Of a stretch of 64,000 nucleotides of DNA, positions 17,369-47,283 are shown one piece after another. This DNA is from Plasmodiophora brassicae. Taxonomy: Eukaryota. Position numbers and translations under genes: made by a program. Positions within the stretch are counted from its first letter, which is position 1; each line of letters starts with the position of its first letter. Location: positions 62,001 to 126,000 of the forward strand of contig CP145419.1 in NCBI GenBank assembly GCA_036867785.1, given 5' to 3'. The notes under the pieces are model-generated. The model ran no database searches, had not been told where the DNA came from, and was given only the letters and a program-made list of their open reading frames with translations.

Positions 17369-17640
17369 CGCCGGGCCCCTCAATTACTTAAGTAGACTGC
17401 TGTCCTACCTATGCCGCGGGAGAAAGGGTCCCGGGTGACCGGATCTGTCTGGGCAGTATAGTTGGCCCACAGGTCCAGTGCGAACACTCGACACTCCGGC
17501 AGGGGACATGTTTCCCAACCAGGACCCGGAAGCGGATAGCCCCTGCGCGATCAAACGATCCCCTGTTGTGGAGGCACTGCATGACGCAGGTGGTTCTATT
17601 GTGATGTGTTGGACAATGATGTTCCGCCCCACGTGGCGTC

Positions 17641-18607: not shown

Positions 18608-18889
18608 GCTGGCCGATATGATGTGGACCAGTCGCCGACGAACGCCTTGCGCAACGGCCGTGGCTGCGACAGAGAGAGTGGACAGAGCGCAACGCGGCGG
18701 GGGCCAACCTGTCGCTCCGCGACGCCGCTGGACCAAAATGGCAAATCCATCAGGCGCAACCCCGGCGGCCGGACGGATCGGCAATACACGAGGCCATGTG
18801 CCTTGTTGCAGTGATGGGTTTACTGAGGCCTTACTTACTGGGCACGTCGTGTGCCGTTGCATCTGACGCCGTTACAGGGCACTGGCGCA

Positions 18890-19927
18890 CTAGACCATGG
18901 AGGAGCTGGGCGGCAGGAATGGTATTCGCGTGAATTCCGCTGCGGCATACTCCCGCCGGTCGCTGTCACTCAACAGGGCGTCGTCGCTGAACACGCGGGC
19001 AGCGGGTGCGGGGGCCGGCGTCGACGATGTTGCTTGCCCAAACACAGACGTTGCAGGTGTGGTCACCTGGCCAAAGGGCGCAGCAGCAGGCGTCGATGGA
19101 GCAGGTTGCTGGCGGGCAGGGAATGCTGACTGGGTTTGGAAGACCGAAGTTTGAGGCGGCGCAGGTGCTTGAGCGAAGGCCGACTGGACCATATTCCCTG
19201 TCGAGACAGGCGCAGAGGGCGTACCCGTCATAGGTGAGGCGAACGACGACGGAGGGGCTGCTTGTGCGAAAGGATTCGCAGGCGCCGAGAATGCGCTCGA
19301 CGTTGACTGGAACGTCGTCGTGGATAATGCAGCGAATGGATTACTGGTGGTGCCGGTAGTAGGGGCAGCGGGTACTGCTGTTTGGAAGGGAGATGGGGCC
19401 TGAAAAGCACCGGTGCTCATCGAGGAGGATTGTGCCAAGAATGGATTCGGCTGCGCAGGCGCTGGAGGACGCCCGAACACGGTAGACGCAGAGCCGAACG
19501 CGCCGCCGCCGATGGACGACGGCTGCCCGAAGACGCCGGACGGTGCTTGCCCAAAGGCGCTGGTCGACTGCGCACCAAACGCACCGAGACCAGACGACTG
19601 CCCGAACTTGGCCTGAAATGGGTTCGACGATGCGCTGCCAAACCCGCCTGACGGATTGAACGGATTGCTGCTGGATGGGGCGGGACCGTGCTGGACACAG
19701 ACTGCGCATCAGGGAACGCAGAGGAGAACGAGGACGGCGCGATCCGTTACTTGAAAACGGCACGATGCTCCATTGCGGCAGTTACCCTGCTGGTAGAATT
19801 TGCAGGGTTGTGCCTCGTGCGAGAACTGGCAGTCGGCCTTGCGGCAGCCGCCAGGCGTGTTCACGAACTTGCATCGCGGTGGCGACGACGACGACCCGCT
19901 GACCACGCGCTTGTGAAACGCGTTCAT
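18890..19927 (-). CDS. CCCH zinc-finger FG-repeat nucleoporin, NUP42/NUPL2(CG1)-like
   Basis: N-terminal CCCH-type fingers (CKFVNTPGGCRKADCQFSH; CKFYQQGNCRNGASCRF), many FG/PF repeats, and a C-terminal F.RIPFLPP resembling the Gle1-binding tail. Confidence 0.75.
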
Positions 19928-20209
19928 CGAGGCGCGTTGGATCACGCTGGCGGGCCTGTCGGCATGAACGGCGCACGACAGGGATCAACCCTGACGCCGG
20001 TCACCGGGCAGCGGTGGGCACACGAGCAACCTGACGCGCAACGGCCAATGACGATGACGCCGGGTCCGCCCCGCACTCCGCGACTGCAGTGTGAGCCGGC
20101 AGGCTGCAGCCAACAGCTGTGAGACCTTCACAAGAGGGTTCGCTATATTATATCAATGTATAATATATATGCTAGTGGGGCTGAGAGGAAGCGCGCCAGC
20201 GGTGGAGCA

Positions 20210-21982
20210 TTATAACCACCTGTGAAGCACGGAGGCGAGGTCCGCCATGGTGAACGGCTTCGTCAGCATATCGTTCATACCAGCACTGAAGCACAGTTCG
20301 CGGTCACGGTGCATGGCGCTGGCCGTCATGGCGACAACCGGTACGTGCGGTCTGTCGGATCGGGATTCCATGTTGCGCAGCGCCATGGTGGCGCCACACC
20401 CGTCGAGCTCGGGCATCTGACAGTCCATCAGCACGAGGTCAACCGGACCAGACGCCTCGAACGTCGACACCGCTTCCTCCCCGTTGCATGCCTCGAGCAC
20501 GTTCCGATAGCCGAGCTTGGACAGCTGTCTGCTCACCAACCGCCGAATGATCGCGTTGTCGTCGACAACGAGTATGGCTTTCTCGGCGTTGAGTGATTTG
20601 TCTGCAGAAACCTCAGGAGCATCTGCTGCAATGGATTCCCCAGCTGGGTCAACGGCGTCGAAAGGTAAATCGACCCAGAAGACGGAACCCTGACCGACCA
20701 CGCTGTGGACACCAATCTGGCCGTTCATCAACTCGACCAAGTTCCGGACGATGTGCAGACCGAGGCCCGCGCCGCCGTACCTCCTCGTGTCCGATGAGTC
20801 CACCTGGAAGAAAGGATCGAAGAGGCCCTCCAGGTTCTCGTGGGCAATCCCGATCCCGCTATCGGCAATCTTGAATCGGACGCGGATGACCCTGTCTTCT
20901 GAATCGTCTCCTTTGATGCGGCTGACGGTCAAAGTGACACTTCCCGAGTCCGTGAACTTGATGGCGTTGTTGAGCAGGTTCGTCAAGATCTGTCGCAGGC
21001 GGTTCGGGTCGCCCCGCACCATCGGAGGCACATCGTCTTCGATATCGACATGAAGCGACAGCGACTTCAGCTTCGCCTGCCCTTGAAGCAGCCGCTCGCA
21101 TTTGCGGACCACTTTGCCAACCAGGAACGGCGTGTGCTCAAGGACGACCTTGCCGGCGTCCAGCCTCGTCATGTCAAGAAGGTCGTTGACCAGGGTGTGA
21201 AGAACGCGCGCCGAATCTCCAATCATATTCACCAGGTGGGCCTGGTCGTCCGAGAGGGGCGTCGCACTGAGCAGGTCGTTGAAGCCGACGATGCCAGTCA
21301 GCGGCGTGCGCAACTCGTGGCTGATCGTTGCGACGAACGTCGACTTGCTGTTGGATGCGTCGACGGCCTTGTCCCGCGCTTCAGTCAGGTCTCCATTCAT
21401 CTTCTCCAGCTCATGGGCTTGCTTCTGGACCTGTTCGGCGCGCTGTAGTACCTCCCACTCCATGCGGCGAAGCGTCTCCTCCTCTCGTTTGGCCGAAGGG
21501 TCACGATCGCGAGCGATGACCAACTCGGTGACGTCCTCGACACGAATGATAATATTGACGAGGTCGCCTGTGTTCGGATCCAGGACTGGGCCTATCAGGC
21601 TGCTCCAGTACTTCGTCTCGAACTCGCCATCTGCGTTCCTGACGTCGTACCTCTGGACGGCCTGGGCGTACGTCTTCCGGTGCTGCAGGACGTAGTCCAA
21701 CGAGGCTTCCATAGAATGGGCGCCATCGGCAGAAGGATCGCTGGGGTTCTGGGGATACACGTCGAAGACATAGCGTCCTGTGATGTCGTCTCTGCATTTC
21801 ATTGTCGCCTCCAGGTAGGAATCGCTCGCAGTGACGACGTGCAGGTTCGGATCCAGAACGAGGCATCGGGCCGGAATCACCTCGAACAGGAGACGGTAGT
21901 CGACCGTTGCCTGCTTGGCGGTTGCATTGCTGGCGCCTGGCAACTCGCGGCGTCGACCATGGCGACGTTTCCAGAAAGGCAT
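20210..21982 (-). CDS. Hybrid sensor histidine kinase HK1 (PAS-HisKA-HATPase_c-REC), intronless, ~590 aa from MPFWKRR
   Basis: PAS ending EDVTE; H box ATISHELRTP; N box TNLLNNAIKFT; G1 DSGIGI; F box FFQVD; G2 GGAGLGL; receiver VVDDN...LMDCQMP...AMTAS...KPF. Confidence 0.95.
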   Translation of the reverse strand: MPFWKRRHGRRRELPGASNATAKQATVDYRLLFEVIPARCLVLDPNLHVVTASDSYLEATMKCRDDITGRYVFDVYPQNPSDPSADGAHSMEASLDYVLQHRKTYAQAVQRYDVRNADGEFETKYWSSLIGPVLDPNTGDLVNIIIRVEDVTELVIARDRDPSAKREEETLRRMEWEVLQRAEQVQKQAHELEKMNGDLTEARDKAVDASNSKSTFVATISHELRTPLTGIVGFNDLLSATPLSDDQAHLVNMIGDSARVLHTLVNDLLDMTRLDAGKVVLEHTPFLVGKVVRKCERLLQGQAKLKSLSLHVDIEDDVPPMVRGDPNRLRQILTNLLNNAIKFTDSGSVTLTVSRIKGDDSEDRVIRVRFKIADSGIGIAHENLEGLFDPFFQVDSSDTRRYGGAGLGLHIVRNLVELMNGQIGVHSVVGQGSVFWVDLPFDAVDPAGESIAADAPEVSADKSLNAEKAILVVDDNAIIRRLVSRQLSKLGYRNVLEACNGEEAVSTFEASGPVDLVLMDCQMPELDGCGATMALRNMESRSDRPHVPVVAMTASAMHRDRELCFSAGMNDMLTKPFTMADLASVLHRWL

Positions 21983-22404
21983 GAGCGCGGCACCCGGCCC
22001 GGTAGTTTTGCAATAGACGATGCGGTCGGGGTCTGCATGTATGCCCCCCGGCGGCATCTGCGATGCAACGACGCGCCACAAAACGGGGCTACGGACGGGC
22101 GCAGATTGCAGATCCGTAGGTACGGACCGAAACGTCGCGGCTCCGCGAGAAACTTCCCCGCGGCGCGCGCTGCTGCGTGTCGTGTTCGCGCCATCTCGGA
22201 TCGGATGCCGCATGATGGCCCGGATCGGCGATCGGGTAGCTGCCTCGTGCAGGATGTGCAAAAACCCCGCCGGTCGAAATTTATTTGCGCCTGCCCGCCG
22301 CTCGCCGAGCAACGATAAGGCGCCGGGCCTGACGCAAACATGCTGCCCTTCGGTGCCGACTATTGCTGCATGCAGTCGCTCTCCACATGGGGAGGGTCAG
22401 CAGC

Positions 22405-22830
22405 TGGCGACGAACGTTGGCCTACTGTCGGATGCCAAATGGCAATGTCTTGCGCCTCAGCCAGTCCTCCATCCATCCTTACGGCGCGCTGCGGTACCTC
22501 CACTCCATGCGGCGAAGCGTCGCCTCCTCTCGTTCGGAAGTGGGGCCCCGATTTCGTGCAAGGACCAGCTCGTCGACGTCCTCGACACGAATGATCCCCT
22601 GTGTTCGGATCCCGGACTGGACCCATCATCAGGTTGCGCTAGTAGCTTCGCACAAACGTTCCGTCAGCGTTCCCGACGTCGTACTTCTGGACGGCCTGCG
22701 CATGTGTCCCGCGATGTTGCAGAGCGAACTTTAGCGATGCTTGCAGAATACTGGCACCATCAACAGATGGGTCGTCGGGGTTGTCGGGGAACACTGGTGG
22801 CGGTCCACGCGGGCTGTGGCGGCAATCATC
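22405..22830 (-). pseudogene. Decayed HK relic A (PAS, linker and start of HisKA)
   Basis: Translates to FPDNPDDPSVDGASILQASLKFALQHRGTHAQAVQKYDVGNADGTF then a stop. Frameshifted homology continues to RRMEW-coding and SKSTFVA-coding DNA. Confidence 0.8.
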
Positions 22831-23158
22831 TGGTGCCGGGTCGGCCATCTGGCAGCCTCAGGCGCCGCCGAAACATCCGAAGGGCCTGTTCGAATGCCTA
22901 TAAGGTTTCTCACCATCCGTCCGATACACCACCCATGCGATTAAACGTCCCAGCTGGAGAACCCAGAGCGTCTGCCGTGCTGCTGGTACGTCACGACGTG
23001 TGCATGTGGCAACTGCCCACATAGGAAGGCAGCGCAGGTCGTGCCAGTCGGTGCGACATGATGGGAAGAACGTCGGCCTGGGAACCGCCCGACGATGCTG
23101 ACGTTGTATGTCCCATGCAAGTTTATTAGGTAGCAGGAACTGAAGCTGAACAAGCGCA

Positions 23159-23240
23159 GAGCCATTTATGGAGAATGGAAGAGAGATCGGCCAGTGTGAA
23201 CGGCTTTGTCTGTACATCGTTCATGCCGGCTCGGCATAGA
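23159..23240 (-). pseudogene. Decayed HK relic B (receiver-domain C-terminus only)
   Basis: Minus strand reads LCRAGMNDVQTKPFTLADLSSILHKWL, matching the end of the intact kinases. Confidence 0.75.
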
Positions 23241-23646
23241 GTGCCTGGTCATGCCAATGCACAGAGGCGGCAGGTCCGGACGCAATCCGGCTCGGGTGAG
23301 ATCAGGTGTTGGCGCGAGAGGCCGACCCGGACCGGGACACGGTACACGGCGGGAACCCGAATCAGCCTGCGGACGCACATGTCGTCGTCGTGCGTGAAGC
23401 AACCGCGATCCCATGGATCGGCAGCGCGCCCAGCTGGTCGCCACAGTTGGCCTGCCCCAGGAAATACTGCCATGGAAGCGAGCCGATGGGGACAGCTCAG
23501 CAACGTCGGCGCCGTGCTCCGAGAGCAGTTCAGAGACACCAGGGCAGGCCGACAGCTTTGTCATGAGGATCGCCCACGCGTAATTGTCTCCTCTTGAGCC
23601 GGTACGATGCATTGGTTCATTACCGATGTACGTAGGCATATTATCA

Positions 23647-25500
23647 CTAAGAACGACTGTAGCTTTGAGCGTTTGCGCGAGAGGTACAGGACCGGCGTAG
23701 CCATCTCTGAAGCATGGACGCGAGGTCGGCCACGGTGAACGGTTTCGCCAGCAGGTCGTTCATGCCAGCACGCAGGCAAATCTCGCGATCACGATGCATG
23801 GCGCTGGCCGTCATGGCGATAATGGGAACAGGCGGGTTGCTAGATCGGGATTCGATGTCGCGCACGGCGATGGTGGCGCCACATCCATCGAGTTCCGGCA
23901 TCTGGCAGTCCATCAGGATGAGGTCCACCGGCCCCGACGCTGCGACTATCGATACCGCTTCCTTTCCATTGCACGCCTCGAGCACGTTCCGATAGCCCAG
24001 CGTGGACAGCTGCCTGCACACCAGCCGCCGAATAATCAGGTTGTCGTCAACGACGAGTATGGCTGTCGTAGCCCGCTGCGTCTTATCCGCACAATGCGAG
24101 ATGGGTTCGGGAACACCCGCTTCCAGGGTCCCTCCAACGTGCCTGACGATGCCGAACGGGATCTCGACCCAGAAGACGGAACCCTGATCGATGACGCTCT
24201 GGACGCCGATCTGTCCATCCATCATCTCGACCAGGGTTTTGACGATGTGCAGGCCGAGGCCCGTGCCGCCGTACCTCCTCGTATCCGACGAGTCCACCTG
24301 GAAGAACGGTGTAAATAGGCCCGCCAGGTCTTGCTGGTCGATCCCGATCCCGCTATCAGCGACTTGGAACTTGATTCGGACGGTCTGGTCACCTGCATCT
24401 TGGCCTTTCACGCGGCTGACGTTCAAGGTGACACCGCCGGCATCGGTGAACTTGATGGCGTTGTTCAGCAGGTTCGTCAGTACCTGCCGTAGGCGATTCG
24501 AGTCGCCCCGCACCAGCACCGGCACGTCGTCATCGATCACGACACGGAACGGTAGGGATTTCAGCTGCGCCTGTCCTTGCAGTAGATGTTGACAATTGCT
24601 GACTATCTTGCGAATTAGGAACGGGGACTGCTCGAGGACGACCTTGCCGGCTTCCAGTTTCGACACGTCGAGAAGGTCGTTGACCAGAGTGTGGAGAACG
24701 CGTGCCGAATCACCGATCAGGTTGACGAGGTCGGTCTGATCGTCCGAGAGGGGCGTCGCACTCAGCAGGTCGGTGAAGCCGACGATGCCAGTCAGGGGTG
24801 TGCGCAACTCGTGGCTGATCGTCGCGACGAACGTCGATTTGCTGTTGGATGCCTCGACAGCCTTGTCCCGTGCTTCAGCCAGCTCAACATTTATCCTCTC
24901 AAGCTCATGTGCCTGGCGCTGGACCTGTTCGGCGCGTTGCAGCACCTCCCATTCCATGCGACGGACCGTCTCCTCGGCGCCGACCCGACGTTGCATTTCC
25001 TGTTCAAACGCAGTTTCATCGCGATCGCGAGCGACCATCAACTCAGTGACGTCCTCACAGCGAATGATGATGTTGATGAGGTCGCCTGTGCTCCGATCCA
25101 GGACGGGCCCAAACAGAGCGCTCCAGTACCTGGTTTCAAACACGCCATCTGCGTTCCTGATGTCGTACTTCTGGACAGCATGGGCGTGCGTCTTCCGATG
25201 CTGCAGGACGTAATTCAGCGATGCCTGCAGACTAAGGGCGCTGTTTGCCGATGGGTCGCTGGGGTTTTCCGGGAACACGTCGAAGATATTTCTCCCGATG
25301 ATGGCATCTCTGCTGGTCATCGTCGCTTCCAGGAAGGCATCGCTGACCGCCAAAATATGCAGGTTCAGGTCCAGGACGGCGCATCGGGCCGGGATCACCT
25401 CGAATAGGTGACGGAAGTCGATCGTTGCAGACCGGGCGGCTGCGTCGCTGGCAGTGGATGCACCCGTTCGCTGACGAGGGCGACGTTTCCAGAATGGCAT
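23647..25500 (-). CDS. Hybrid sensor histidine kinase HK2, intronless, ~617 aa
   Basis: Same motif set as HK1, all catalytic residues present; begins MPFWKRR; extended C-terminus. Confidence 0.95.
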   Translation of the reverse strand: MPFWKRRPRQRTGASTASDAAARSATIDFRHLFEVIPARCAVLDLNLHILAVSDAFLEATMTSRDAIIGRNIFDVFPENPSDPSANSALSLQASLNYVLQHRKTHAHAVQKYDIRNADGVFETRYWSALFGPVLDRSTGDLINIIIRCEDVTELMVARDRDETAFEQEMQRRVGAEETVRRMEWEVLQRAEQVQRQAHELERINVELAEARDKAVEASNSKSTFVATISHELRTPLTGIVGFTDLLSATPLSDDQTDLVNLIGDSARVLHTLVNDLLDVSKLEAGKVVLEQSPFLIRKIVSNCQHLLQGQAQLKSLPFRVVIDDDVPVLVRGDSNRLRQVLTNLLNNAIKFTDAGGVTLNVSRVKGQDAGDQTVRIKFQVADSGIGIDQQDLAGLFTPFFQVDSSDTRRYGGTGLGLHIVKTLVEMMDGQIGVQSVIDQGSVFWVEIPFGIVRHVGGTLEAGVPEPISHCADKTQRATTAILVVDDNLIIRRLVCRQLSTLGYRNVLEACNGKEAVSIVAASGPVDLILMDCQMPELDGCGATIAVRDIESRSSNPPVPIIAMTASAMHRDREICLRAGMNDLLAKPFTVADLASMLQRWLRRSCTSRANAQSYSRS

Positions 25501-26077
25501 GGCAGCGTAATTCGTTCTCCTGCTGACGAAGCGGCCTCTCGAACGGGACCCTCCAATGGACAAGTTGTGACAGACCGGGCGCTGTGGGAATCCGTTCCGG
25601 CGGAGAATCGTTTTGACCGCACAGTGCACACGCTGCTTGCTGCCCAGTGGGGCAGTGGCCAGTGCGGACGGCGACGATTTCTCCGCCCGCGCAATGCGGA
25701 CCTCGGGGTTCCTGTCCTGAATCCGGAAGGACGAAGGTCCACCGTCGCAGACGCAGCTGTGTGCTTACGGCTTGGCCCTCTTGGTACAACATTGGTCGTT
25801 GACTTACTTCAGTCTGTGTCCATAGAAACCGGCAAGACAAGACTAGGAAATCTGCAGGCCGGAATCCTGGATCGAACTGTGTCCCGTTGATAAGCGGAGC
25901 GGCTGACGAACAGGTCTCGGGGTACCCTGGGGATGCGCACATCGCCCCTCTATCATTTGGTACGGCGTGGTATCGTGTTCCTAGCATCGCCGGCAGCGTT
26001 TCCTTTATTGACACCTGCAGCAGAGTCTCGATGCCTTTTCGTACACTACCAGCGTACTGCCCGCTGTTAGAGGGCCA

Positions 26078-27877
26078 TCATATCCATTTCTGAAGCATGG
26101 ATGCGAGCTCGGCAACGGTGAACGGTTTCGCCAGCATGTCGTTCATACCAGCACGAAGGCACATCTCGCGGTCGCGGTGCATGGCGCTGGCCGTCATGGC
26201 GATAATGCGGATGGGCGGGTTGCCGGCCGATCGGGATTCGATTTCGCGCAGGGCCATCGTGGCCCCGCAGCCATCGAGTTCGGGCATCTGGCAATCCATC
26301 AAGATGATGTCAACCGGCCGCGACGTTTCAAATGTGGTCAGGGCTTCTTTCCCGTTGCATGCAAGAAGCACGTTGCGATAGCCGAGGCGGGATAGCTGCC
26401 TCGACACCAAACGCCGAATGATGGCGTTGTCGTCGACCACGAGTATGGATTTCTCTGCGTTCGGCGTTATCGCGTCTGCTGACCTCGGGCCGGCATATTC
26501 GAGAGCACCAGCTCCATCGGCCTGTCCGTCTTGCTGGACGATGCAGAACGGTAGGTCGACCCAGAATGTGGAACCTTGGCCGATGACGCTCTGGACGCCG
26601 ATCCGCCCTTTCATCAGGTCCACCAGCGTCTTCACGATGGGGAGGCCGAGGCCCGTGCCACCATATCTCCTGGTATCAGAGGAGTCCACCTGGAAGAAGG
26701 GCTCAAACAGACCGGGCAAATCCCGCTGGGCAATGCCGATCCCGGCATCGGCAACCTGGAACCGAATGTGAACGACATGATCGTCTGGATCTTGCGCTTG
26801 TGCTTTGCGTCGACTGACGGTCAACGAGACACCAATATTGGAATCTGTGAACTTGATGGCATTGTTCAGCAGGTTTGTTAGGATCTGCCGCAGGCGGTTC
26901 GGGTCGCCCCGCACCAGCACCGGTACGTCGTCATCGATATCAACACGGAGCGGTAACGATTTGAGTCGTGCCTGCCCCTGAAGCAAATGTTCGCACTTGC
27001 GGACCACCTCGCCGATCTGGAACGGGGTATGCTCCAAGACAACGGTGCCCGATTCCAACTTCGACATGTCGAGGAGGTCGTTGACCAGTGCATGTAGAAC
27101 GCGGGCCGAATCGCCAATGAGGTCCACAAGATGGGCCTGGTCCTCCGAGAGAGGCGTCGCGCTGAGCAGGTCGGTGAAGCCGACGATGCCGGTCAGGGGT
27201 GTGCGCAACTCGTGGCTAATCGTCGCGACGAACGTCGATTTGCTGTTGGATGCCTCGACGGCCTTGTCCCGAGCTTCAGTCAGCTCTCCATTCATCCTCT
27301 CCAGCTCATCGGCCTGCTTCTGGACCTGTTCGGCCCGCTGCAGTACCTCCCACTCCATGCGGCGAATCCGCTCCTCCTCTCGTTCAGACGAAGCGTCACG
27401 ATCGCGTGCAACGACCAACTCGGTGACATCTTCGATGCGAACGATGATACTGATGACGTCGCCTGTCTTCGGATCTAGGACCGGGCGCATCAGATTGCTC
27501 CAGTACCTCGTCTCGAACACGCCATCAGCGTTCCGGATATCGTACTTCTGTACGGCCTGGGCGTAAGTCTCCCGGCGTTGCAGGACGGAATTCAACGAGG
27601 CACGCAGACTACGGACGCCATCGGCGGACTGGTCGCTGGGGTTGTCGGGGAACACGTCGAAGAGGTGGCGACCGGTGATGTCCTCTCTGCGTCTCATTGT
27701 CGCGTCTAGGTAGGCATCGGTCATTGCCAATATGTTCAGGTTCGGGTCCAGGACGACACATCGGGCCGGGATCATCTCGAACAGGAGCCGATAGTCGAGA
27801 GCTGGCGACTTGCCGGCGCCATCGCCGTCGCTGGGCGTTTTGGTTTGCCGGCAAGTTCGACGTCTCCAGAACGGCAT
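26078..27877 (-). CDS. Hybrid sensor histidine kinase HK3, intronless, ~599 aa
   Basis: Same motif set; begins MPFWRRR. Confidence 0.95.
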   Translation of the reverse strand: MPFWRRRTCRQTKTPSDGDGAGKSPALDYRLLFEMIPARCVVLDPNLNILAMTDAYLDATMRRREDITGRHLFDVFPDNPSDQSADGVRSLRASLNSVLQRRETYAQAVQKYDIRNADGVFETRYWSNLMRPVLDPKTGDVISIIVRIEDVTELVVARDRDASSEREEERIRRMEWEVLQRAEQVQKQADELERMNGELTEARDKAVEASNSKSTFVATISHELRTPLTGIVGFTDLLSATPLSEDQAHLVDLIGDSARVLHALVNDLLDMSKLESGTVVLEHTPFQIGEVVRKCEHLLQGQARLKSLPLRVDIDDDVPVLVRGDPNRLRQILTNLLNNAIKFTDSNIGVSLTVSRRKAQAQDPDDHVVHIRFQVADAGIGIAQRDLPGLFEPFFQVDSSDTRRYGGTGLGLPIVKTLVDLMKGRIGVQSVIGQGSTFWVDLPFCIVQQDGQADGAGALEYAGPRSADAITPNAEKSILVVDDNAIIRRLVSRQLSRLGYRNVLLACNGKEALTTFETSRPVDIILMDCQMPELDGCGATMALREIESRSAGNPPIRIIAMTASAMHRDREMCLRAGMNDMLAKPFTVAELASMLQKWI

Positions 27878-29205
27878 TGCTGCACCGTACCTGAATTGCA
27901 TTGCGAGATTCAGCTCGGCGCCCCGAATGAGCCTTCTACAGCTTACAGGCAGTGCGATGGGTACCGTTTTCGCCGGTTATCCGTCCAGGCGGCGAATTCT
28001 GACCACACAAGCTGCTAGAGCGGGCAGCCCAGTGCGGCCCGAAAATAACGCGCCGAGTCCGTGGCACGGACGACAATTCCGATTCCTGGCCGCGCACCTC
28101 ATCAGCTGTGCGCCTGTGCCTCGCCAATGCGTATTGGTACACATATAAGCCAGTGGTTCCTGTATCATTTTGGGTATGACACGTAACGCGCCCTTCTGGC
28201 AGTACCGACTCGCGTCGCACGCGTCTTCAGGGCAATGCATGAATGTCGACTGGACCGTGATGCGGCCTGTAGTACTCTAGGTTAAGGCTGCTGATCCCAA
28301 GATGCATGGTACGTGTCCCAGCATCCATGCCATACATTTGTCGTGCCCGTCGAAGTGGGCCATGATCCCAAGTGCGTTTCCCGTCAGCGGCCGTAGCAAC
28401 GACCAGTCTCTGTGCGTACTCCAGCCCTCGCTGAACGCTCCACGAGGCAGCGACGACGTTGGGACTTGGCAGGAGTATCATTGTCCTGGTCGTATTGGTA
28501 TCTATGACCTTCGTAGACGGCGATGTTTTCACCTGACTGTCTAAGGAAGTTGCTGACCTCCTGTGAAGATGAAGATCCACCAGCGACAATCAGCAGATCC
28601 CCGGAACGCCCGAGTTCAACAGCACTCGACGATAAAATCGATCGCCCTGACGTGACGTTTCCACCATGCGAGATCCGCCAATCACGACAGAAACGAGACC
28701 AGCGGTTTCGCGAGCCCGGGCGTAGCGACAACGTTCCTCCCGTGTCCCGCATAGTTGCACTCACACTATGTTAAACTTACCATCCAAGGTCCGGATTCTC
28801 TCCAAATCCCGTTACAACCGTGCCACCGGTTTCCTTCGGTCCCAGCTTCGCGACAGCACCATTGCCGGAAAGTGCATGAACCCCGGGCTGCACCAACGGC
28901 TTGATTTTACAGAACGTAGCTGTCGAATGCTTTGCTCGGATCTGCATATTAACTTCGTTCATGGACGCACCTGCGTACGCTCGTTACGGTCGCAGCTGAT
29001 GTATGAGACAACTCGCACTCAGTGCCATCCTGGTTGTGGAATACGAGCACTGGTCGTCGAGAACATCGACGTATACCGCTATGGCCCCGCGCAGGACGCG
29101 GCCACCGCAATTGGCATCTGCGGCGACGTCTCGATGATCTCGTACGTGACTGGTGTCTATATGAATTATTACATTGGTCCTGAACGCTCCGACGTCGGTA
29201 CACGA

Positions 29206-31011
29206 TCACAGCCATTTATGAAGCACGGACGCGAGGTCGGCCACGGTGAACGGTTTCGCCAGCACGTCGTTCATGCCAGCACGCAGGCACATCTCGCGAT
29301 CCCGGTACATGGCGCTGGCCGTCATGGCGATGATGGGAACCGGGAATGGGTTGCCGGATCGGGATTCGATGTTGCGCAGGGCGATGGTGGCGCCACAACC
29401 ATCGAGTTCCGGCATCTGGCAGTCCATCAGGATGAGGTCCACCGGCCCCGACGTTTCGAATTTCGATACCGCCTCCTTCCCGTTGCATGCAAGAAGCACT
29501 CTCCGGCAGCCGAGGGTGAACAGCTGTCTGGACACCAATCGCAGTATGATCTCGTTGTCGTCGACAACGAGTACGCGTGTGCCTGCTGTCGGCATCGTGC
29601 CATCACACGTCGGGCCGGGATTCGGAACGCTGGTACGACCGGCTTCTCCAACGTGATCGACGACTCCGAACGGGATGTCGACGCAGAAGACGGAACCCTG
29701 ATCGACGACGCTCTGGACGCCGATATGCCCATTCATCATCTCGATCAGGGTCTTGACGATGTGCAGGCCGAGGCCGGTGCCGCCGTACCTCCTCGTATCC
29801 GACGAATCCACCTGAAAGAACGGGGTAAACAGGCTCGCCAGGTCTTGCTGGTCGATCCCGATCCCGCTGTCAGCGATTTGGAACCTGATTCGGACGGTCT
29901 GGTCACCGGCATCTCGGGCTTTCACGCGGCTGACGTTCAAGGTGACACCGCCGGCATCGGTGAACTTGATGGCGTTGTTCAGCAGGTTCGTCAGTACCTG
30001 CCGTAGACGATTTGAGTCGCCCCGCACCAGCACCGGCACGTCGTCATCGATCATGACACGGAACGGTAGGGATTTCAACTGCGCCTGCCCTTGAAGTAGA
30101 TGTTGACATTTGCTGACCACCTTGCGAATTAGGAACGGGGCCTGCTCGAGGACGACCTTGCCGGCTTCCAGTTTCGACACGTCGAGAAGGTCGTTGACCA
30201 GAGTGTGCAGAACGCGTGCCGAATCACCGATCAGGTTGAGGAGGTCGGTCTGATCGTCCGAGAGGGGCGTCGCACTCAGCAGGTCGGTGAAGCCGACGAT
30301 GCCAGTCAGGGGCGTGCGCAACTCGTGGCTGATCGTCGCGACCAACGTCGATTTGCTGTTGGATGCCTCGATGGCCTTGTCCCGTGCTTCAGTCAGTTCA
30401 GCGTTCATCTTTTCCATCTCCAAGGCCTGCTGCTGGACCTGTTCGGCACGTTGCAGTACCTCGCATTCCATGCGGCGAATCGTCTCCTCGGCACCGACCC
30501 GTCGCCGCTTCTCCTGTTCGAAGGATGACTCACGACCGCGAGCGACGATTAACTCGGTGACATCCTCAATGCGAATAATGATGTTGACCAGGCCGCCTGT
30601 GTTTGGATCCAGGACGGGGCAACTAACGCCGGACCAGTATTTCGTTTCGAACAGGCCGTCAGCGTTCCTGACGTCGAATTTCTGGACGGCCAACGCGTGC
30701 GACTTGCGGTGTTCCAGGACATATTTCAGCGACGCGCGCAGGTTGCGGACGCCATCGGCGGATGGATCACTGGGATTGTCGGGGAACACGTCGAACAGAT
30801 ATCGTCCGGTGATGTTCTCCTTGCGTGTCATCGTTGCTTCCAGGTAGGCGTCGCTCGCCGCCACGATGCGCAGTTCCAGGTCCAGGACGACGCATTGGGT
30901 CGGAATCGCCTGGAATATGAGGTGATAGTCGACCGTTGCCGGCTCGGCGGCCGCTTTACCGACGCATGGCATTCTGATGCCTTGCCCTGTGCGACGTTTC
31001 CAGAGCGGCAT
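29206..31011 (-). CDS. Hybrid sensor histidine kinase HK4, intronless, ~601 aa
   Basis: Same motif set; begins MPLWKRR. Confidence 0.95.
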   Translation of the reverse strand: MPLWKRRTGQGIRMPCVGKAAAEPATVDYHLIFQAIPTQCVVLDLELRIVAASDAYLEATMTRKENITGRYLFDVFPDNPSDPSADGVRNLRASLKYVLEHRKSHALAVQKFDVRNADGLFETKYWSGVSCPVLDPNTGGLVNIIIRIEDVTELIVARGRESSFEQEKRRRVGAEETIRRMECEVLQRAEQVQQQALEMEKMNAELTEARDKAIEASNSKSTLVATISHELRTPLTGIVGFTDLLSATPLSDDQTDLLNLIGDSARVLHTLVNDLLDVSKLEAGKVVLEQAPFLIRKVVSKCQHLLQGQAQLKSLPFRVMIDDDVPVLVRGDSNRLRQVLTNLLNNAIKFTDAGGVTLNVSRVKARDAGDQTVRIRFQIADSGIGIDQQDLASLFTPFFQVDSSDTRRYGGTGLGLHIVKTLIEMMNGHIGVQSVVDQGSVFCVDIPFGVVDHVGEAGRTSVPNPGPTCDGTMPTAGTRVLVVDDNEIILRLVSRQLFTLGCRRVLLACNGKEAVSKFETSGPVDLILMDCQMPELDGCGATIALRNIESRSGNPFPVPIIAMTASAMYRDREMCLRAGMNDVLAKPFTVADLASVLHKWL

Positions 31012-31885
31012 TGCACCGTAATCTGCCCCGCAGCCACCGGATCGGCGTCTTGTAGAATGGGTACCCGTTTCGTGCGGGGGTCGCCTTGCCCTTTGGTCGG
31101 CGAATCCTGACCGCACAACTGCCGGCAGGCGCAGCTACGTGCGGCCAAAAATAGTGTTCGCGGTCCGCGAAACTGGGAAGGTCGACGCCGGTGCGCCCCA
31201 TGAGTCCCTGACCCTTGCGCTCTTCCCATAGACATATTATTGGCCCGTCGCGGCGGATGTCGCCACTGTGCATTCGGATATCTTGCATCGGGACCCTGGC
31301 ACCGGGGAACAGGCTAGTACCGTTACGTATGGGCAAATAACCCGCACACAAGTGTGTTCCCCGGTCGCATCCAACTGTGTGCAGGTGGTTATCTGGCAGG
31401 ACGTCGCGCTTTCGGGGTCAACGGGTCCGCGCCGTCGAGGGACAACGGGGCTTGACGTTTCGCCTTAGGGGAAGGGACAATGACGGCTGCCATGTGGGCA
31501 ATGCGGGCCCGTTGGCCCCCGGCACGTTGACGTGAGCACGGCAGTGCAACCGGCGGCCCGACACATAGGCATCGTTCCACATCACGACGACTATGACATG
31601 ACGTGGGGCGATCAAGCCATTCTGGACGTCTTCCTACGTTGGCTGGAGGCGCCATTTCGTCTGCAGTGCCTGGCGCAATGCCACGGGGACAGTGCCTGCA
31701 GCATCCCCAGGCGACATCGGGACCGACGATGAGCCTTGCGCCCGTTTCCCTTCTGAGACTGTCATGCCATGCCCCGGCGGTTTATCCAGTGCCATGGAAT
31801 GGCGTTTATCTCGACCATCTCCTACATGACTGATGTTTATACGAATAATTAAATTGCTCCTGAACACTACGCCGTCGTTACACGA

Positions 31886-32921
31886 TCATAGCCATTTATG
31901 AAGCACGGAGGCGAGGTCGGCCACGGTGAACGGTTTCGCCAGCAGGTCGTTCATGCCAGCACGAAGGCACATCTCGCGATCCCGGTACAAAGCGCTGGCC
32001 GTCATGGCGATGATGGGAACCGGGAACGGGTTGCCGGATCGGGATTCGATGTTGCGCAGGGCGATGGTGGCGCCACAACCATCGAGTTCCGGCATCTGGC
32101 AGTCCATCAGGATGAGGTCCACCGGCCCCGACGTTTCGAATTTCGATACCGCCTCCTTCCCGTTGCATGCAAGAAGCACTCTCCGGCAGCGGTGAAGCCG
32201 ACGATGCCAGTCAGGGGCGTGCGCAACTCGTGGCTGATTGTCGCGACCAACGTTGATTTGCTGTCGGATGCCTCGATAGCCTTGTCTCGCGCTTCAACCA
32301 GTTCAGCGTTCATCTTTTCCATCTCCGAGGCCTGCTGCTGGACCTGCTCGGCACGTTGCAATACCTCGCATTCCATGCGGCGAATCGTCTCCTCGGCACC
32401 GACCCGTCGCCGCTTCTCTTGTTCGAAGGACGCCTCACGGTCGCGGGCGACGATTACCTCTGTGACATCCTCAATGCGAATAATGATGTTGACCGGGCGC
32501 GGCCGCCTGTGTTCGGATCCAGGACGGGGCAACTAACGCCTGACCAGTATTTCGTTTCGAACAGGCCGTCAGCGTTCCTGACGTCGAATTTCTGGACGGC
32601 CAACGCGTGCGACTTGTGGTGTTCCAGGACATATTTCAGCGACGCGAGCAGGTTGCGGACGCCATCGGCGGATGGATCACTGGGATTGTCGAGGAACATA
32701 TCGAACAGATATCGTCCGGTGATGTTTTCCTTGCGTGTCATCGTTGCTTCCAGGTACGCATCGCTCGCCGCCACGATGCGCAGGTCCAGGTCCAGGACGA
32801 CGCATTGGGTCGGGATCGCCTGGAATATGAGGTGATAGTTGACCGTTGCCGGTTCGGCGGCCGCTTTACCGACGCATGGTATTCTGATGCCTTGTCCTGT
32901 GCGACGTTTCCAGAGCGGCAT
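31886..32921 (-). pseudogene. HK5 pseudogene: near copy of HK4 with a +5 nt frameshift (~32495) and a 775 nt internal deletion (junction 32190/32191)
   Basis: The junction CTCCGGCAGC|GGTGAAGCCG joins sequences found in HK4 at 29510 and 30286, removing the HATPase domain and the start of REC. GACCGGGCGCGGCC replaces GACCAGGCC. Confidence 0.9.
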
Positions 32922-33902
32922 TGCACCGTAATCTGCCCCGCAGCCAACGGATCGGCGTCTCCACGGATCTGCAATGGACAAGTTGTAGAATGGGTACCCG
33001 TTTCGTACGGGTCCCCCTTGAACGGCGAATCCTGACCGCACAACTGCCGGCAGGCGCAGCTGCGCACGGCCAGAAATGGCGTTCGCAGTCCGCGAAATTG
33101 GGCAGGTCGACGCCGGTACGACACGTGGCTCTTGCGTCTTCCCATGGGCATATTATTGGCCCGTCGCGGCGGATGTCGCCACTGTGCATTCGGGTATCGT
33201 TCATCATCAGGACCTCGCACCGGGGAACAGACTGGTACCATTACGTACGGGCAAATAACCCGCGCACATGTGTGCTCCGCGGCCGTATCCAACTGTGTGC
33301 AGGTGGTTATCTGACATGACGTTGCGCTTTCGGGGGATAACGGGACTTGACGTTTCGCCTTACGGGGAGGGGACATTGACGGCTGTCTGCGGCTTCGGGG
33401 GCCGACGGGGCTTGACGTTTCGCCTTAGGGGAAGGGGCAATGACGGCTGCCTTATGGGCAATGCGGACCCGTTGGCGTCCGGCACGTTGACGTGAGCACG
33501 GCACTGCAACCGGCGGCTCGGCACATAGGCATCGTTCCTCATCACGACTACTATGACATGACGTGCGGCGCTCAAGCCATTCTGGACGTCTTCCTACGTT
33601 CGCCGGAGGCGCCATTTCGTCGGCAGTGCCTGGCGCAATGCCACGCGGACAGTCCCTGCAGCATAGACGACATCGGGACCGACGTCTACTGTTCAGTAGC
33701 AGAGATGAGCCTTGCGCCCTTTGCCCTTCTGAGACTGTCATGCCATGCCCGGCGGTTTATCCAGTGCCTAGGAATGGCGTTTAGCGGTGTGACAACAAAC
33801 GGTTTGGGTCAGGGTGAGGTGTTGGTCTTGATGATCTCCTGCATGACTGGTGTTTATACGAATTATTACATTGGTCCTGAACACTACGCCGTTGTTACAC
33901 GA

Positions 33903-35699
33903 TCATAGCCATTTATGAAGCACGGACGCGAGGTCGGCCACGGTGAACGGTTTCGCCAGCACGTCGTTCATGCCAGAACGAAGGCACATCTCGCGATCCC
34001 GGTACATGGCGCTGGCCGTCATGGCGATGATGGGAACCGGGAACGGGTTGCCGGATCGGGATTCGATGTTGCGTAGGGCGATGGTGGCGCCACAACCATC
34101 GAGTTCCGGCATCTGGCAGTCCATCAGGATGAGGTCCACCGGCCCCGACGTTTCGAATTTTGATACCGCCTCCTTCCCGTTGCATGCAAGAAGCACTCTC
34201 CGGCAGCCGAGGGTGAACAGCTGTCTGGACACCAATCGCAGTATGATTGCGTTGTCGTCGACAACGAGTACGCGTTTGCCTGCTGTCGGCACCCTGCCGC
34301 CACACCTCGGGCTGGGATTAGGAACGCTGGTACGACCGGCTTCTCCAACGTGATCGACGACTCCGAACGGGATGTCGACGCAGAAGACGGAACCCTGATC
34401 GACGACGCTCTGGACGCCGATCTGCCCATTCATCATCTCGACCACGGTCTTGACGATGTGTAGGCCGAGGCCGGTGCCGCCGTACCTCCTCGTATCCGAC
34501 GAATCCACCTGGAAGAACGGGGTAAATAGGCCCGCCAGGTCTTGCTGGTCGATCCCGATCCCGCTATCAGCGACTTGGAACCTGATTCGGACGGTCTGGT
34601 CACCGGCATCTCGGGATTTCACGCGGCTGACGTTCAAGGTGACACCGCCGGCATCGGTGAACTTGATGGCGTTGTTGAGCAGGTTCGTCAGTACCTGCCG
34701 TAGGCGATTCGAGTCGCCACGCACCAGCACCGGCACGTCGTCATCGATCACGACACGGAACGGTAGGGATTTCAGCTGCGCCTGGCCTTGAAGTAGATGT
34801 TGACATTTGCTGACCACCTTGCGAATTAGGAACGGGGCCTGCTCGAGGACGACCTTGCCGGCTTCCAGTTTCGACACGTCGAGAAGGTCGTTGACCAGAG
34901 TGTGGAGAACGCGTGCCGAATCACCGATCAGGTTGACAAGGTCGGTCTGGTCGTCCGAGAGAGGCGTCGCGCTGAGAAGGTCGGTGAAGCCGACGATGCC
35001 AGTCAGGGGTGTGCGCAACTCGTGGCTGATCGTCGCGACCAACGTCGATTTGCTGTTGGATGCCTCGATGGCCTTGTCCCGTGCTTCAGTCAGCTCAGCG
35101 TTCATCTTGTCCATCTCCAAGGCCTGCTGCTGGACCTGCTCGGCACGTTGCAGCACCTCCCACTCCATACGGCGCGCCGTCTCCTCGGCACCGACCCGTC
35201 GCCGCTTCTCTTTTTCGAAGGACGCCTCGCGATCACGAGCGATAATTAACTCAGTGACATCCTCACAGCGAATAACGATGTTGATCAGGTCGCCTGTGTT
35301 CGAATCCAGGACGGGGCAACCAACGCCGGACCAGTATCTCGTTTCGAACTGGCCGTCAGCGTTCCTAAGGTCATATTTCTGGACGGCCATCGAGTGCGAC
35401 TTGCGGTGTTCCAGGACGTACTTCAGCGACGCGCGCACGGTGCGGACGCCATCGGCGGATGGATCACTGGGATTGTCGGGGAACACGTCGAACAGATATC
35501 GTCCAATGATGTTCTCTCTGCGTGTCATCGTTGCTTCCAGGAACGCATCGCTCGCCGCCGTGATGCACAGGTTCATGTCCAGGACGACGCATCGGTCCGG
35601 AATCGCCTGGAATATGAGGCGATAGTTGACGGCTGCCGGTTCGGCGGCCGCTTTACCGACGCATGGTATTCTGACTGTGCGACGTTTCCAGAGCGGCAT
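33903..35699 (-). CDS. Hybrid sensor histidine kinase HK6, intronless, ~598 aa
   Basis: Same motif set; begins MPLWKRR. Confidence 0.95.
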   Translation of the reverse strand: MPLWKRRTVRIPCVGKAAAEPAAVNYRLIFQAIPDRCVVLDMNLCITAASDAFLEATMTRRENIIGRYLFDVFPDNPSDPSADGVRTVRASLKYVLEHRKSHSMAVQKYDLRNADGQFETRYWSGVGCPVLDSNTGDLINIVIRCEDVTELIIARDREASFEKEKRRRVGAEETARRMEWEVLQRAEQVQQQALEMDKMNAELTEARDKAIEASNSKSTLVATISHELRTPLTGIVGFTDLLSATPLSDDQTDLVNLIGDSARVLHTLVNDLLDVSKLEAGKVVLEQAPFLIRKVVSKCQHLLQGQAQLKSLPFRVVIDDDVPVLVRGDSNRLRQVLTNLLNNAIKFTDAGGVTLNVSRVKSRDAGDQTVRIRFQVADSGIGIDQQDLAGLFTPFFQVDSSDTRRYGGTGLGLHIVKTVVEMMNGQIGVQSVVDQGSVFCVDIPFGVVDHVGEAGRTSVPNPSPRCGGRVPTAGKRVLVVDDNAIILRLVSRQLFTLGCRRVLLACNGKEAVSKFETSGPVDLILMDCQMPELDGCGATIALRNIESRSGNPFPVPIIAMTASAMYRDREMCLRSGMNDVLAKPFTVADLASVLHKWL

Positions 35700-36453
35700 T
35701 GCACTGTAATCTGCCCCGCAGCCAACGGATCGACGTCTCCACTGGTCTGCAATGGACAAGGTGTAGAATGGGGTATCCGTTCCGTACTGGTCGCCCTTGA
35801 ACGGCGAATCCTGGCCGCACAAATGCCGGCAGGCGCAGCTGCGTTCGGCCAGAAATAGCGTTCGCAGTCCGCGAATTTGGGAAGGTCGACGCCGGTGCGC
35901 ACCCGTGCCGCTTGCGCCCTTCTTCCCATAGAAATATTATTTGTCCGTCGCCGCGGATGTCGCCACTGTGCATTCGGGTATCGTTCATCGGGACCTGGCA
36001 CCGGGGAAGAGGCTCGGACCATTACGTATGGGCAAAGAACCCGCACGTAGGTGGTTATCTGACAGGACGTTGCGCTTTCGGGGGACAACGGGGCTTGACG
36101 TTTCGCCGGAGAGGGACAATGGCGGCTGTGCCTTATGGGCAATGCGGGCCCGTTGGCGCCCGGCACGTTGACGTGAGCACGGCTGAAGTGGGCACTGCAA
36201 CCGGCGGCCAGGCACATTGGCATCGTTCCACGTCACGACTACTATGATATGACGCGCGACGCTCAAGCCATTCTGGACGTCTTCCTACGTCCGCCAGAGG
36301 CGCCATTTCGTCGGCAGTGTCTGGCGCAATGCTAGACGGGCAGCGCCTACAGCATCCCCAGCCGACGTCATCGGGACCGGCGTCTACCGCTCAGTAGCAG
36401 AGCTGAGCCTTGCGGCCGTTGCCTTCTGGGAGTGCCATGCCATGCCCGGCGGT

Positions 36454-37194
36454 TTATCCAGTGCCTAGGAATGGCTGTTTGAGCGGTGTGACAACAAACG
36501 GTTTGGGTCGGGGTGAGGTTTCCAGGAGGACCCGGAGCTGCCGGCGTTCCTCCCTGATCTGGTCCCTGGTGAGGGATTGACCAGTGGCCATCAGGAGCGG
36601 GGCTCGCCCGCCCAGTTTCGTCACTGCTGTGTGCCATGGTTGCACTGTGGGCGCTGCTGCGCGCTTCCGCTGCCGCCGCGTCTCCTGCGAGCGCAACGCG
36701 TCGGTGTCGACGGCGGGCATGAACAGAGTCGGGCCGAACAGGCCGAAATGCAGCCCTTTGGGGGATGGGTTCGCACACCGCCATGTAGGTCTGTTGCTCC
36801 TCCTTGGGTTTGCTCGCAGGTTGGACGTCGACGCCGCACGTCGGCTGGGCGTTCGGGCGCCCTCTTCGGCCATGTTCACGAAACCGGTCTCCCAGCGCAT
36901 CTTACGGCGAGGTGGTGCTACTGCGAATGGGTGCTTACCGCCGATCAGGGCGACGTGCGCCTTGTGCCGCTCGATCTCCTCCTGGTGCAGGCGCTCCAGG
37001 TCGTCATCCGTGATGGGCGATATGAAGTCGAACGAGCGGAACAGTTTCCGGCTGCAAGGCGACCCGCAGCGCCAGGCGACCGGAGCAGACCGCCCTCGCG
37101 GTTTCGGCGCAGTCGAACGCTCCTTCGATCGCGAGCGACGCCGTGACCGCGACCTGGCCGCCTTGCGCGACCCGCCTGCACCGGCCACCGCCAT
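36454..37194 (-). CDS. Hypothetical basic protein
   Basis: Open 246-codon frame with protein-like composition (ITDDDLERLHQEEIERHK); no recognised domain. Confidence 0.55.
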   Translation of the reverse strand: MAVAGAGGSRKAARSRSRRRSRSKERSTAPKPRGRSAPVAWRCGSPCSRKLFRSFDFISPITDDDLERLHQEEIERHKAHVALIGGKHPFAVAPPRRKMRWETGFVNMAEEGARTPSRRAASTSNLRANPRRSNRPTWRCANPSPKGLHFGLFGPTLFMPAVDTDALRSQETRRQRKRAAAPTVQPWHTAVTKLGGRAPLLMATGQSLTRDQIREERRQLRVLLETSPRPKPFVVTPLKQPFLGTG

Positions 37195-38486: not shown

Positions 38487-38592
38487 GCGCCCGTGTGATT
38501 GGGACCCGCGATTTCGAAAGATATTCTGGTTGCCTGCATGGTACTCGAGGGTCACAGCTTCACACACACAACGCACACACACGCGCGTCCCG

Positions 38593-47268: not shown

Positions 47269-47283
47269 GCACTCGATAATACC

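Follow-up and report, generated by a model that had tools for sequence, protein, structure and literature searches.

The 64,000-nucleotide stretch of Plasmodiophora brassicae DNA analysed here (contig CP145419.1, positions 62,001 to 126,000; in the following, the window) carries on its minus strand, between 20210 and 35822, a tandem array of hybrid histidine kinase (HK) genes. In the reading that we consider probable, this array is a nuclear cluster of soluble hybrid kinases that goes back to a gene of soil bacteria, which was acquired, adapted and multiplied, and whose relay mechanism we take from knowledge of the family. There is good support for an old transfer from a bacterium to a eukaryote, after which the gene expanded locally by birth and death and underwent gene conversion. 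The genes have been catalogued previously; it is their proposed bacterial origin that is new.

Architecture of the tandem array

Five long open reading frames (ORFs) make up the intact part of the array (20210-22312, 23647-25629, 26078-27901, 29206-31116 and 33903-35822). Counted from the conserved start MP[FL]W[KR]RR, the coding sequences (CDSs) are HK1 at 20210..21982 (590 residues from MPFWKRR; older model PBRA_008116), HK2 at 23647..25500 (617 residues), HK3 at 26078..27877 (599 residues), HK4 at 29206..31011 (601 residues) and HK5 at 33903..35699 (598 residues, 91% identical to HK4). All are on the minus strand and intact, with the domain order PAS_4-HisKA-HATPase_c-REC. The flank upstream of HK5 (35700..36480, minus strand) was duplicated together with the gene and matches 31012-31807 upstream of HK4.

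Decayed copies were located by tblastn of two intact copies against the window, with E-values that are in all cases far past chance expectation. The recent pseudogene at 31889..33041 (minus strand) retains the N-terminus, the PAS domain and the coiled-coil linker in two frames and is joined near 32190 directly to a receiver. Residues 1-277 are kept, followed by residues 537-636, at 85-98% identity to HK4. Because residue 277 jumps to 537, the HisKA/HATPase core must have been deleted. A PAS relic at 22438..22794 (minus strand; E 4e-19 to 7e-21) is 41-60% identical to the intact copies and shares 73% nucleotide identity with 21436-21760. Of a further copy, a relic of the last 28 residues of the receiver is left at 23159..23239 (minus strand; E 4e-6 to 2e-8, 5e-9 with the REC hidden Markov model (HMM)). 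The first-pass annotation had counted at least eight same-strand copies, five intact, one recent pseudogene and two relics, and ORFs, Pfam and tblastn bear out both count and coordinates; its outer limits, 20210 and 35699, are the CDS limits obtained from the conserved start.

A conserved upstream element (TGTGCGGTCAGGATTCGCCG-like) is found about 100-125 nt 5' of the start codons of HK2-HK5 and of the pseudogene, for example at 35800-35823. It is common to copies whose intergenic DNA is otherwise unalignable and may be a promoter or 5'UTR element.

Domains and predicted activity

Four Pfam families are matched above the Pfam cut-offs in all five copies: PAS_4 (E-values of 1.5e-6 to 2.6e-10), HisKA (about 1e-20), HATPase_c (about 1e-28) and Response_reg (1e-21 to 1e-25). 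PAS_4 (PF08448) reaches 27.4-41.0 bits in each of the five at a cut-off of 23.1, and HisKA (PF00512) 71.8-76.3 bits at a cut-off of 26.9, with an invariant H-box SHELRTPL. HATPase_c (PF02518) scores 96.6-101.2 bits, and the motifs NLLNNAIKFT, DxGIGI, LFxPFxQVD and GGxGLGL, which we take to be the N, G1, F and G2 boxes, are conserved in 5/5 copies. The receiver (PF00072) scores 75.8-88.4 bits, and VVDDN, LMDCQMPELDG, AMTA and KPF are invariant. In the alignment, the H-box, the four ATPase boxes and the DD, phospho-Asp, Thr and Lys of the receiver are invariant not only in the five copies, as had been noted at first pass for the full set of catalytic residues, but in the bacterial relatives as well. 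By domains and motifs, the five copies are class I (HisKA-type) hybrid histidine kinases with predicted activity.

The highest 19-residue Kyte-Doolittle mean of HK1-HK5 is 1.17-1.45 and is located inside the PAS domain. In this crude hydropathy test, none of the five shows a membrane segment or an N-terminal hydrophobic stretch, and over residues 1-30 their net charge is +3 to +6. With basic N-termini and no mean above 1.45, they are predicted to be soluble and to lack a classical signal peptide. A kinase of the cytokinin-receptor (CHASE) type was considered and rejected, as there is neither a CHASE Pfam match nor a hydrophobic segment. The N-terminus itself is a conserved basic extension of about 25 residues beginning MP[FL]W[KR]RR (in HK1 21908-21982, minus strand). 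It is present in the P. brassicae paralogues with a complete N-terminus and absent from the bacterial relatives, which suggests that it was gained after transfer.

For the PAS domain, an AlphaFold2 model (pLDDT 85.7) shows a five-stranded sheet with helices. In a fold search of the PDB, its top matches are the PAS domains of LOV, NifL and DosP (E about 1e-8, 14-25% identity), which is a generic fold match. By sequence, the PDB yields matches for the kinase and receiver parts only and no solved relative of the PAS part. Blue-light sensors of the LOV type carry a flavin-binding cysteine motif in the PAS core. A LOV sensor was rejected as a candidate, given that no cysteine occurs in the invariant or near-invariant PAS columns of 66 sequences and that identity to LOV structures is 14-25%. 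The same 66 PAS sequences have in common the loop FPDNPxDP and the motifs Q-K-Y-D and R-x-W-S, and for this reason the P. brassicae PAS probably binds the same ligand class as its bacterial relatives.

Probable bacterial origin of the kinases

A search of 5.8 billion proteins with HK3 returned 120 listed matches, 9 of which are P. brassicae or window entries. Among the other 111 listed matches, 13 carry an organism name; all 13 are bacterial and none is eukaryotic. The PAS domain alone gave 53 matches in the same collection, 7 of them P. brassicae or window entries, and of the other 46 the 11 named ones are again bacterial without exception. Ten of these 11 are Streptomyces PP2C phosphatases with the same PAS_4 subtype, which marks the sensor as a mobile bacterial module. 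Stretches that match both I[IV][HIV]RxEDVT[ED] and a receiver pattern number at least 600 in a set of one genome per prokaryotic species, and 586 of the 600 counted encode a relative. From its motifs, the PAS had been said to look like a specific bacterial PAS_4 type, and these named matches and prokaryotic stretches agree with that.

The best named relatives are proteins of 570-572 residues from metagenome-assembled genomes (MAGs) of Obscuribacteraceae/Obscuribacterales, 40-42% identical over residues 20-596. Against proteins of the same architecture and length, identity is 40-46% across the full length, PAS included, and the PAS motifs AVQKYDxR, YWS..PV and RVEDVTE are common to bacterial proteins with the same four-domain order. 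A metagenome scan with the metagenome protein P0012 gave a best identity of 46-50% and no locus closer to HK3 than the Obscuribacterales loci. The nearest ESM Atlas clusters are 97-100% bacterial, which we regard as a lead only.

Three maximum-likelihood (ML) trees were built. A quick tree of 64 rows comprised 36 of 80 genome loci (those with a match including the PAS) and 20 of the 111 database matches; P0005 and P0006, two paralogues outside the window, were left out of it and of a careful tree of 41 rows, and were included in a careful tree of 26 rows. Supports are given as UFBoot/SH-aLRT. All ten P. brassicae paralogues form one clade (100/100). In the 41-row tree, the P. brassicae clade (100/100) is joined by the metagenome proteins P0010-12 (85/81), then by the Obscuribacterales group (100/99) and then by the P0021/P0030/P0036 group (100/97), in which the named proteins belong to Obscuribacterales/Melainabacteria. 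The P. brassicae clade is thus nested in bacterial homologues, and the named members of the enclosing clades are all Obscuribacterales/Melainabacteria. The first-pass annotation had suggested a horizontally acquired sensor; according to the trees, it is the whole protein that has its place among bacterial homologues with this architecture.

Integration in the nuclear genome

A P. brassicae contig of 1,206,894 bp encodes a protein with 100% identity to HK3, whose named near relatives are all entered as 'Histidine kinase [Plasmodiophora brassicae]'. An intracellular plant parasite had been a conditional premise of the earlier annotation, which fits this organism. Base composition sets the genes apart from their bacterial relatives. 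The HK genes have a GC content of 59.3-59.6% and a third-position GC content (GC3) of 72-75%, next to a left neighbour with a GC3 of 79% and a reported P. brassicae genome GC of 58.5%. The Obscuribacterales homologues have a GC of 42-48% and a GC3 of 39-51%. The composition of the HK genes, host-like and unlike that of the bacterial relatives, speaks for an old transfer and excludes contamination.

Contigs of four public RNA runs from four studies were aligned to 16200-36199. They are at least 99% identical to the window for 48-56 of 51-57 pieces per run, and 20 runs from 8 studies contain at least 60% of the sampled words. The left neighbour, a cytochrome-b5-reductase-like gene (FAD_binding_6 + NAD_binding_1; 17644-18871, minus strand), is spliced and has high RNA contig depth. 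Its minus-strand introns are 60-69 nt long, three of them (61-69 nt) in frame within a 345-codon ORF, and a fourth minus-strand intron of the left side lies at 19691-19750. Given these introns and a poly-T loose end, the four runs contain spliced P. brassicae RNA. Within the HK CDSs, no minus-strand intron occurs among the 15 joints listed, of 21, in the four runs, while P. brassicae genes have a mean of four introns of 60 bp (PMC4471660). The intron-free state of the HK coding regions next to intron-rich genes on the left had already been pointed out and stands for the joints listed; it has to be corrected for an intron in the 5'UTR of HK3 and for splicing on the opposite strand, both described below. 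We conclude that the array is physically integrated in a nuclear chromosome of P. brassicae and is not contamination.

The array is flanked by genes for a Pol-epsilon zinc finger protein, a cytidylyltransferase, the cytochrome-b5-reductase-like protein, an Rce1-like protease, a PPR-DYW protein and a ZIP transporter. The PPR-DYW gene at 47280-51143 (plus strand) is an uninterrupted ORF of 1287 codons with PPR repeats and a C-terminal DYW deaminase domain (E 1.3e-21), which is the architecture of a plant-type RNA-editing factor in a rhizarian. Four segments of the window (1-4000, 38000-40000, 48000-52000 and 56000-58000) reach 71-75% GC and hold long overlapping ORFs on both strands, several of 400-1250 codons without Pfam match.

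Expansion, turnover and gene conversion

At least ten intact genes on four contigs belong to the family: the five window copies, P0005, P0006, P0007, P0008/P0175 and P0009/P0176. P0005 (PBRA_008123) and P0006 (PBRA_008125), which share about 66% identity with the copies of the window, lie on the same contig outside it. All five window copies fall into a single clade in the 26-row tree (100/100), with P0005 and P0007 as its sister group (93/93), which argues that the array grew in place.

Pairwise dS ranges from 0.12 (HK4-HK5) to 0.73. HK4, the pseudogene and HK5 share their flanks (29128-31807 against 33825-36480, 87.5% identity); the older copies are alike in coding sequence only and not in their flanks. 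Between HK2 and HK4/HK5, the HisKA-HATPase core has a dS of 0.04-0.14 and the PAS a dS of 0.73. This low core dS compared to that of the PAS points to gene conversion, by which the kinase core of HK2 was homogenised with HK4/HK5. The birth-and-death cluster proposed at first pass is recovered in the five intact copies, the recently deleted pseudogene and the two relics, with gene conversion in addition.

Selection differs along the protein. For most pairs, dN/dS is 0.04-0.26 in HisKA, HATPase and REC. For HK4-HK5, it is 0.71 in the PAS, 0.04 in HisKA, 0.22 in HATPase and 0.11 in REC, values that derive from few substitutions. The PAS value is consistent with divergence of the sensor, with the same small number of substitutions behind it.

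Sense and antisense transcription

HK3 carries a GT..AG intron of 56 nt in its 5'UTR (27891..27946, minus strand), 14 nt upstream of the ATG. The splice joint (27887-27944) is seen in two of the four runs (X1, X15). Summed contig depth over the bins of HK1-HK3 is 28-968, compared to 0-5.6 in two bins at 16200-17533 in the same runs, and because these latter bins are so low, carry-over of DNA cannot explain the cover of HK1-HK3. Depth is low or zero over HK4, the pseudogene and HK5, copies which are 86-98% alike and at which contigs break.

On the opposite strand, the RNA contigs contain nine GT..AG joints of 53-67 nt, each in one to four runs. Eight of these introns belong to spliced antisense RNA (one or more) at 23602..28202 (plus strand): 23602-23662, 24552-24618, 25759-25825, 25960-26023, 26551-26617, 27045-27097, 27961-28018 and 28137-28202. 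The ninth, at 33245..33302 (plus strand), occurs in one run only (X1). The intron 24552-24618 lies inside the CDS of HK2, 26551-26617 and 27045-27097 lie inside that of HK3, and 23602-23662 overlaps the 3' end of the HK2 CDS. The longest stop-to-stop ORF in the spliced antisense product (5.3 kb) has 294 residues, no better than in the unspliced sequence. Plus-strand RNA over HK2 and HK3 thus looks like non-coding antisense RNA. Its splice sites in HK2 are common only to HK4/HK5, the copies with the gene-converted core, and two sites in HK3 are unique; as sites are not shared between old paralogues, there is no evidence for old, conserved antisense introns. At the HK2 joint, spliced contigs of runs X8 and X10 extend at least 181-211 nt on both sides, and the contig of X1 is unspliced there. 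The balance of sense and antisense may differ between samples, which we treat as a lead and not as a result.

Two further features of the contigs were seen. Contigs of two runs each depart from the window sequence at 33820, 35600 and 19876 and continue for 211-255 letters without match in 16200-36199; structural differences between isolates, paralogue junctions or distant exons may be the cause. In one run only (X1), a skip of 65 nt with non-canonical ends (CC..TC) occurs at 22884-22950, on a 3.4-kb contig that spans HK1, the relic region and the 3' end of HK2. Either a deletion in that strain or non-canonical splicing could account for it.

Relay partners and earlier literature

In the window, neither an HPt protein nor a stand-alone receiver was found by Pfam scans of 32 ORFs and exon pieces outside the array. 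HPt and REC HMMs run on all six frames of the window gave no hit outside the array either, a search in which short intron-split exons could be missed. Both agree with the first-pass statement that no HPt or response regulator was recognised in the window, and they lend no support to the chemosensory phosphorelay that was considered possible at first pass.

A catalogue of 16 HKs for P. brassicae e3 describes most of them as cytoplasmic and places the PAS-bearing ones in two clades (Kabbara 2018, PMC6324907). The genes of the array are annotated as histidine kinases and are presumably among these 16, so that the term 'undescribed' used at first pass has to be withdrawn for them. The available sections of the catalogue mention neither a bacterial donor for the P. 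brassicae HKs nor an arrangement in tandem, pseudogenes or antisense transcripts, and it calls for work on laterally acquired eukaryotic HKs. Besides this catalogue, the literature searched yielded nothing on where these genes come from, how the array is built or the RNA antisense to it, and a term search of the main texts of three genome papers found no mention of histidine kinases. According to the accessible part of a recent preprint (10.1101/2025.11.18.684874), nucleus-targeted TurboID biotinylates one predicted P. brassicae HK, PbPE48/CEP01791, in infected Arabidopsis. The accessions of the six database proteins looked up (CEP00804, CEP00811, CEP00812, CEO96518, CEP02568 and CEP01690) do not include CEP01791.

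Alternative explanations

The strongest competitor for the origin of the genes is an ancient eukaryotic hybrid kinase that descended vertically and was lost almost everywhere else, with the likeness to bacteria reflecting shared two-component ancestry. Such a history would suit the entirely host-like base composition and the long stem that leads to the P. brassicae clade (0.61-0.82), and it profits from trees without eukaryotic HKs and from a search that did not extend to sister Phytomyxea genomes. It fits poorly with 40-46% full-length identity, PAS included, to proteins of identical architecture and length, with a clade placed several nodes deep inside bacterial groups (100/99, 100/97) and with 111 + 46 matches that name no other eukaryote. 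Intron-free CDSs in a genome with a mean of four introns per gene (PMC4471660) speak against it as well, and we regard vertical descent as improbable. Contamination with bacterial DNA, or an assembly that wrongly collapsed or expanded the array, has a practically negligible likelihood. The sequence does look bacterial with its intron-free coding regions, and HK4, the pseudogene and HK5 are alike enough (86-98%) to be hard to assemble; however, the genes sit within a 1.2-Mb contig between spliced eukaryotic genes, their GC3 is that of the host, and introns are spliced from the 5'UTR of HK3 and, in antisense, from within copies. The agreement of independent data, with contigs of four runs at 99% or more for 48-56 of 51-57 pieces and 20 runs of 8 studies holding at least 60% of the words, leaves little room for an artefact.

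Two alternatives concern function. If the cluster were largely decaying, its members would be redundant, weakly constrained and mainly a source of non-coding antisense RNA with little signalling role. One pseudogene and two relics, a dN/dS of up to 0.38 overall and of 0.71 in the PAS of the youngest pair, and the X8 and X10 antisense-spliced contigs that reach at least 181-211 nt to both sides of the HK2 joint can be cited in its favour. We give it little credence in view of five open ORFs of 590-617 codons in which every catalytic residue is invariant, of the low dN/dS that most pairs show in HisKA, HATPase and REC (0.04-0.26), and of the sense-spliced 5'UTR of HK3 in two runs. Even less probable, in our judgement, is that the kinases are effectors in the host cell, where they would feed or drain the plant AHP/ARR cytokinin relay. 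The label on PbPE48/CEP01791 in host nuclei, reported in the accessible part of the preprint (10.1101/2025.11.18.684874), and the conserved basic N-terminal extension, absent from bacterial relatives, would agree with this idea. It is opposed by N-termini that have no signal-like hydrophobic character, by proteins without membrane segment, by the absence of CEP01791 from the accessions of the six looked-up family proteins and by the fact that nothing in the analysis bears on host proteins. Cross-talk with host AHP proteins, a speculation of the first-pass annotation, thus gains no support here.

Our preferred reading, a bacterial kinase gene acquired, adapted and multiplied, has to be held against several points that weaken it. 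The attachment of the closest sister, P0010-12, is 85/81 with 41 rows and falls to an unresolved 52/9 with 26 rows, so that the donor lineage is approximate; these three proteins could moreover come from uncultured eukaryotes. The trees contain no eukaryotic HKs, and absence from other eukaryotes rests on ranked match lists instead of a rooted tree. No eukaryote besides P. brassicae is named among the 111 + 46 other matches, of which 13 and 11 carry an organism name. On the functional side, one would expect a signalling enzyme to be under somewhat tighter constraint than an overall dN/dS of 0.22-0.38 indicates. The fold match of the PAS domain does not carry a ligand inference, and the downstream relay is assumed, as neither HPt nor response regulator was seen in the window. 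Finally, the RNA contigs are unstranded, so cover of HK1, HK2, HK4 and HK5 could be antisense, and direct sense evidence exists for HK3 only.

Proposed mechanism and significance

The history that we propose starts from one ancestral gene with the same four-domain architecture, which would have come from a bacterium most likely related to Obscuribacterales/Melainabacteria, as trees and similarity suggest. The transfer appears to be old enough for complete adaptation of base composition. The basic N-terminal extension and the 5'UTR intron of HK3 would be gains made afterwards. Multiplication to at least ten paralogues would have followed, five of which would have arisen in place by tandem duplication. 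Ongoing turnover would account for the deleted pseudogene and the two relics, and gene conversion for the homogenised core of HK2 and HK4/HK5.

For the protein, the predicted order is an N-terminal PAS_4 sensor, a coiled-coil linker, the HisKA dimerisation and phospho-acceptor domain, the HATPase_c catalytic domain and a C-terminal receiver. Going by what is known of the family, a small-molecule or redox cue at the PAS domain would change autophosphorylation of the H-box histidine in a dimeric kinase. The phosphoryl group would then pass to the receiver aspartate of the same protein, which would hand it on to separate parasite proteins, an HPt protein and a response regulator. The multi-intron antisense RNAs over HK2 and HK3 may modulate these two genes.

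A more far-reaching proposal is that the one kinase captured from an Obscuribacterales-like soil bacterium, by growing to at least ten paralogues, has become a cytoplasmic receptor panel whose copies are switched off in planta by antisense RNAs. On the sensor side, the tandem copies diverge fastest in the PAS (0.71 in the youngest pair compared to 0.04-0.22 in the catalytic domains), and on the antisense side, antisense-spliced contigs dominate HK2 in two runs and not in a third. We consider this proposal rather unlikely. If true, soil- or host-derived cues would time spore germination or plasmodial development through such a panel.

P. brassicae is an uncultivable parasite of crops, the cause of clubroot, and its signalling is almost unknown. 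Two-component kinases are discussed as antimicrobial targets and are, to our knowledge, absent from animals. In our reading, at least ten P. brassicae kinases trace to one bacterial gene, set against 16 HKs counted in an earlier assembly. With its N-terminal extension, the 5'UTR intron of HK3 and its adapted composition, the family would be a clean case, and one that can be dated, of a eukaryote taking over a bacterial sensor in full. It also provides a defined set of candidate receptors, whose ligand could be looked for using the PAS domain in isolation, and a locus suited to comparing sense with antisense transcription across life stages. The understanding of hybrid kinases as such is unchanged: a bacterial-type hybrid kinase family in a eukaryote is of a known kind, and the antisense RNA is what was unexpected.

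Comparison with known systems

The brown alga Ectocarpus has an HK set that was likewise enlarged by horizontally acquired, intron-poor genes, for which inserted large DNA viruses are the source proposed in the part of the catalogue that treats them (PMC6324907). For the P. brassicae HKs, in contrast, the nearest relatives are bacterial, and no viral or mobile-element gene was found among the ORFs scanned around the array. The Streptomyces PAS_4-PP2C/SpoIIE phosphatases (P0146-P0162) share the PAS_4 subtype, with 41-45% identity to the PAS of HK3, but their output is a serine/threonine phosphatase and not a histidine kinase with receiver.

The closest known system is that of the Obscuribacterales/Melainabacteria MAG kinases (L001-L003; P0019, P0033, P0045; 570-574 residues), the nearest named group in the trees. 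They have the same four domains in the same order at nearly the same length and, besides 40-42% identity over residues 20-596, the PAS motifs AVQKYDIR, RYWS..PV and RVEDVTE. At locus L002, the bacterial gene stands alone among unrelated genes for HlyD, TetR, a methyltransferase, a TPR protein and MscS; with neither an HPt nor a response regulator gene beside it, this neighbourhood gives no functional hint. Compared to these bacterial kinases, the P. brassicae proteins possess the basic extension of about 25 residues and lack a 3-residue insertion in the PAS domain, and their genes have a host-like GC3, a 5'UTR intron in HK3 and a place on a eukaryotic chromosome.

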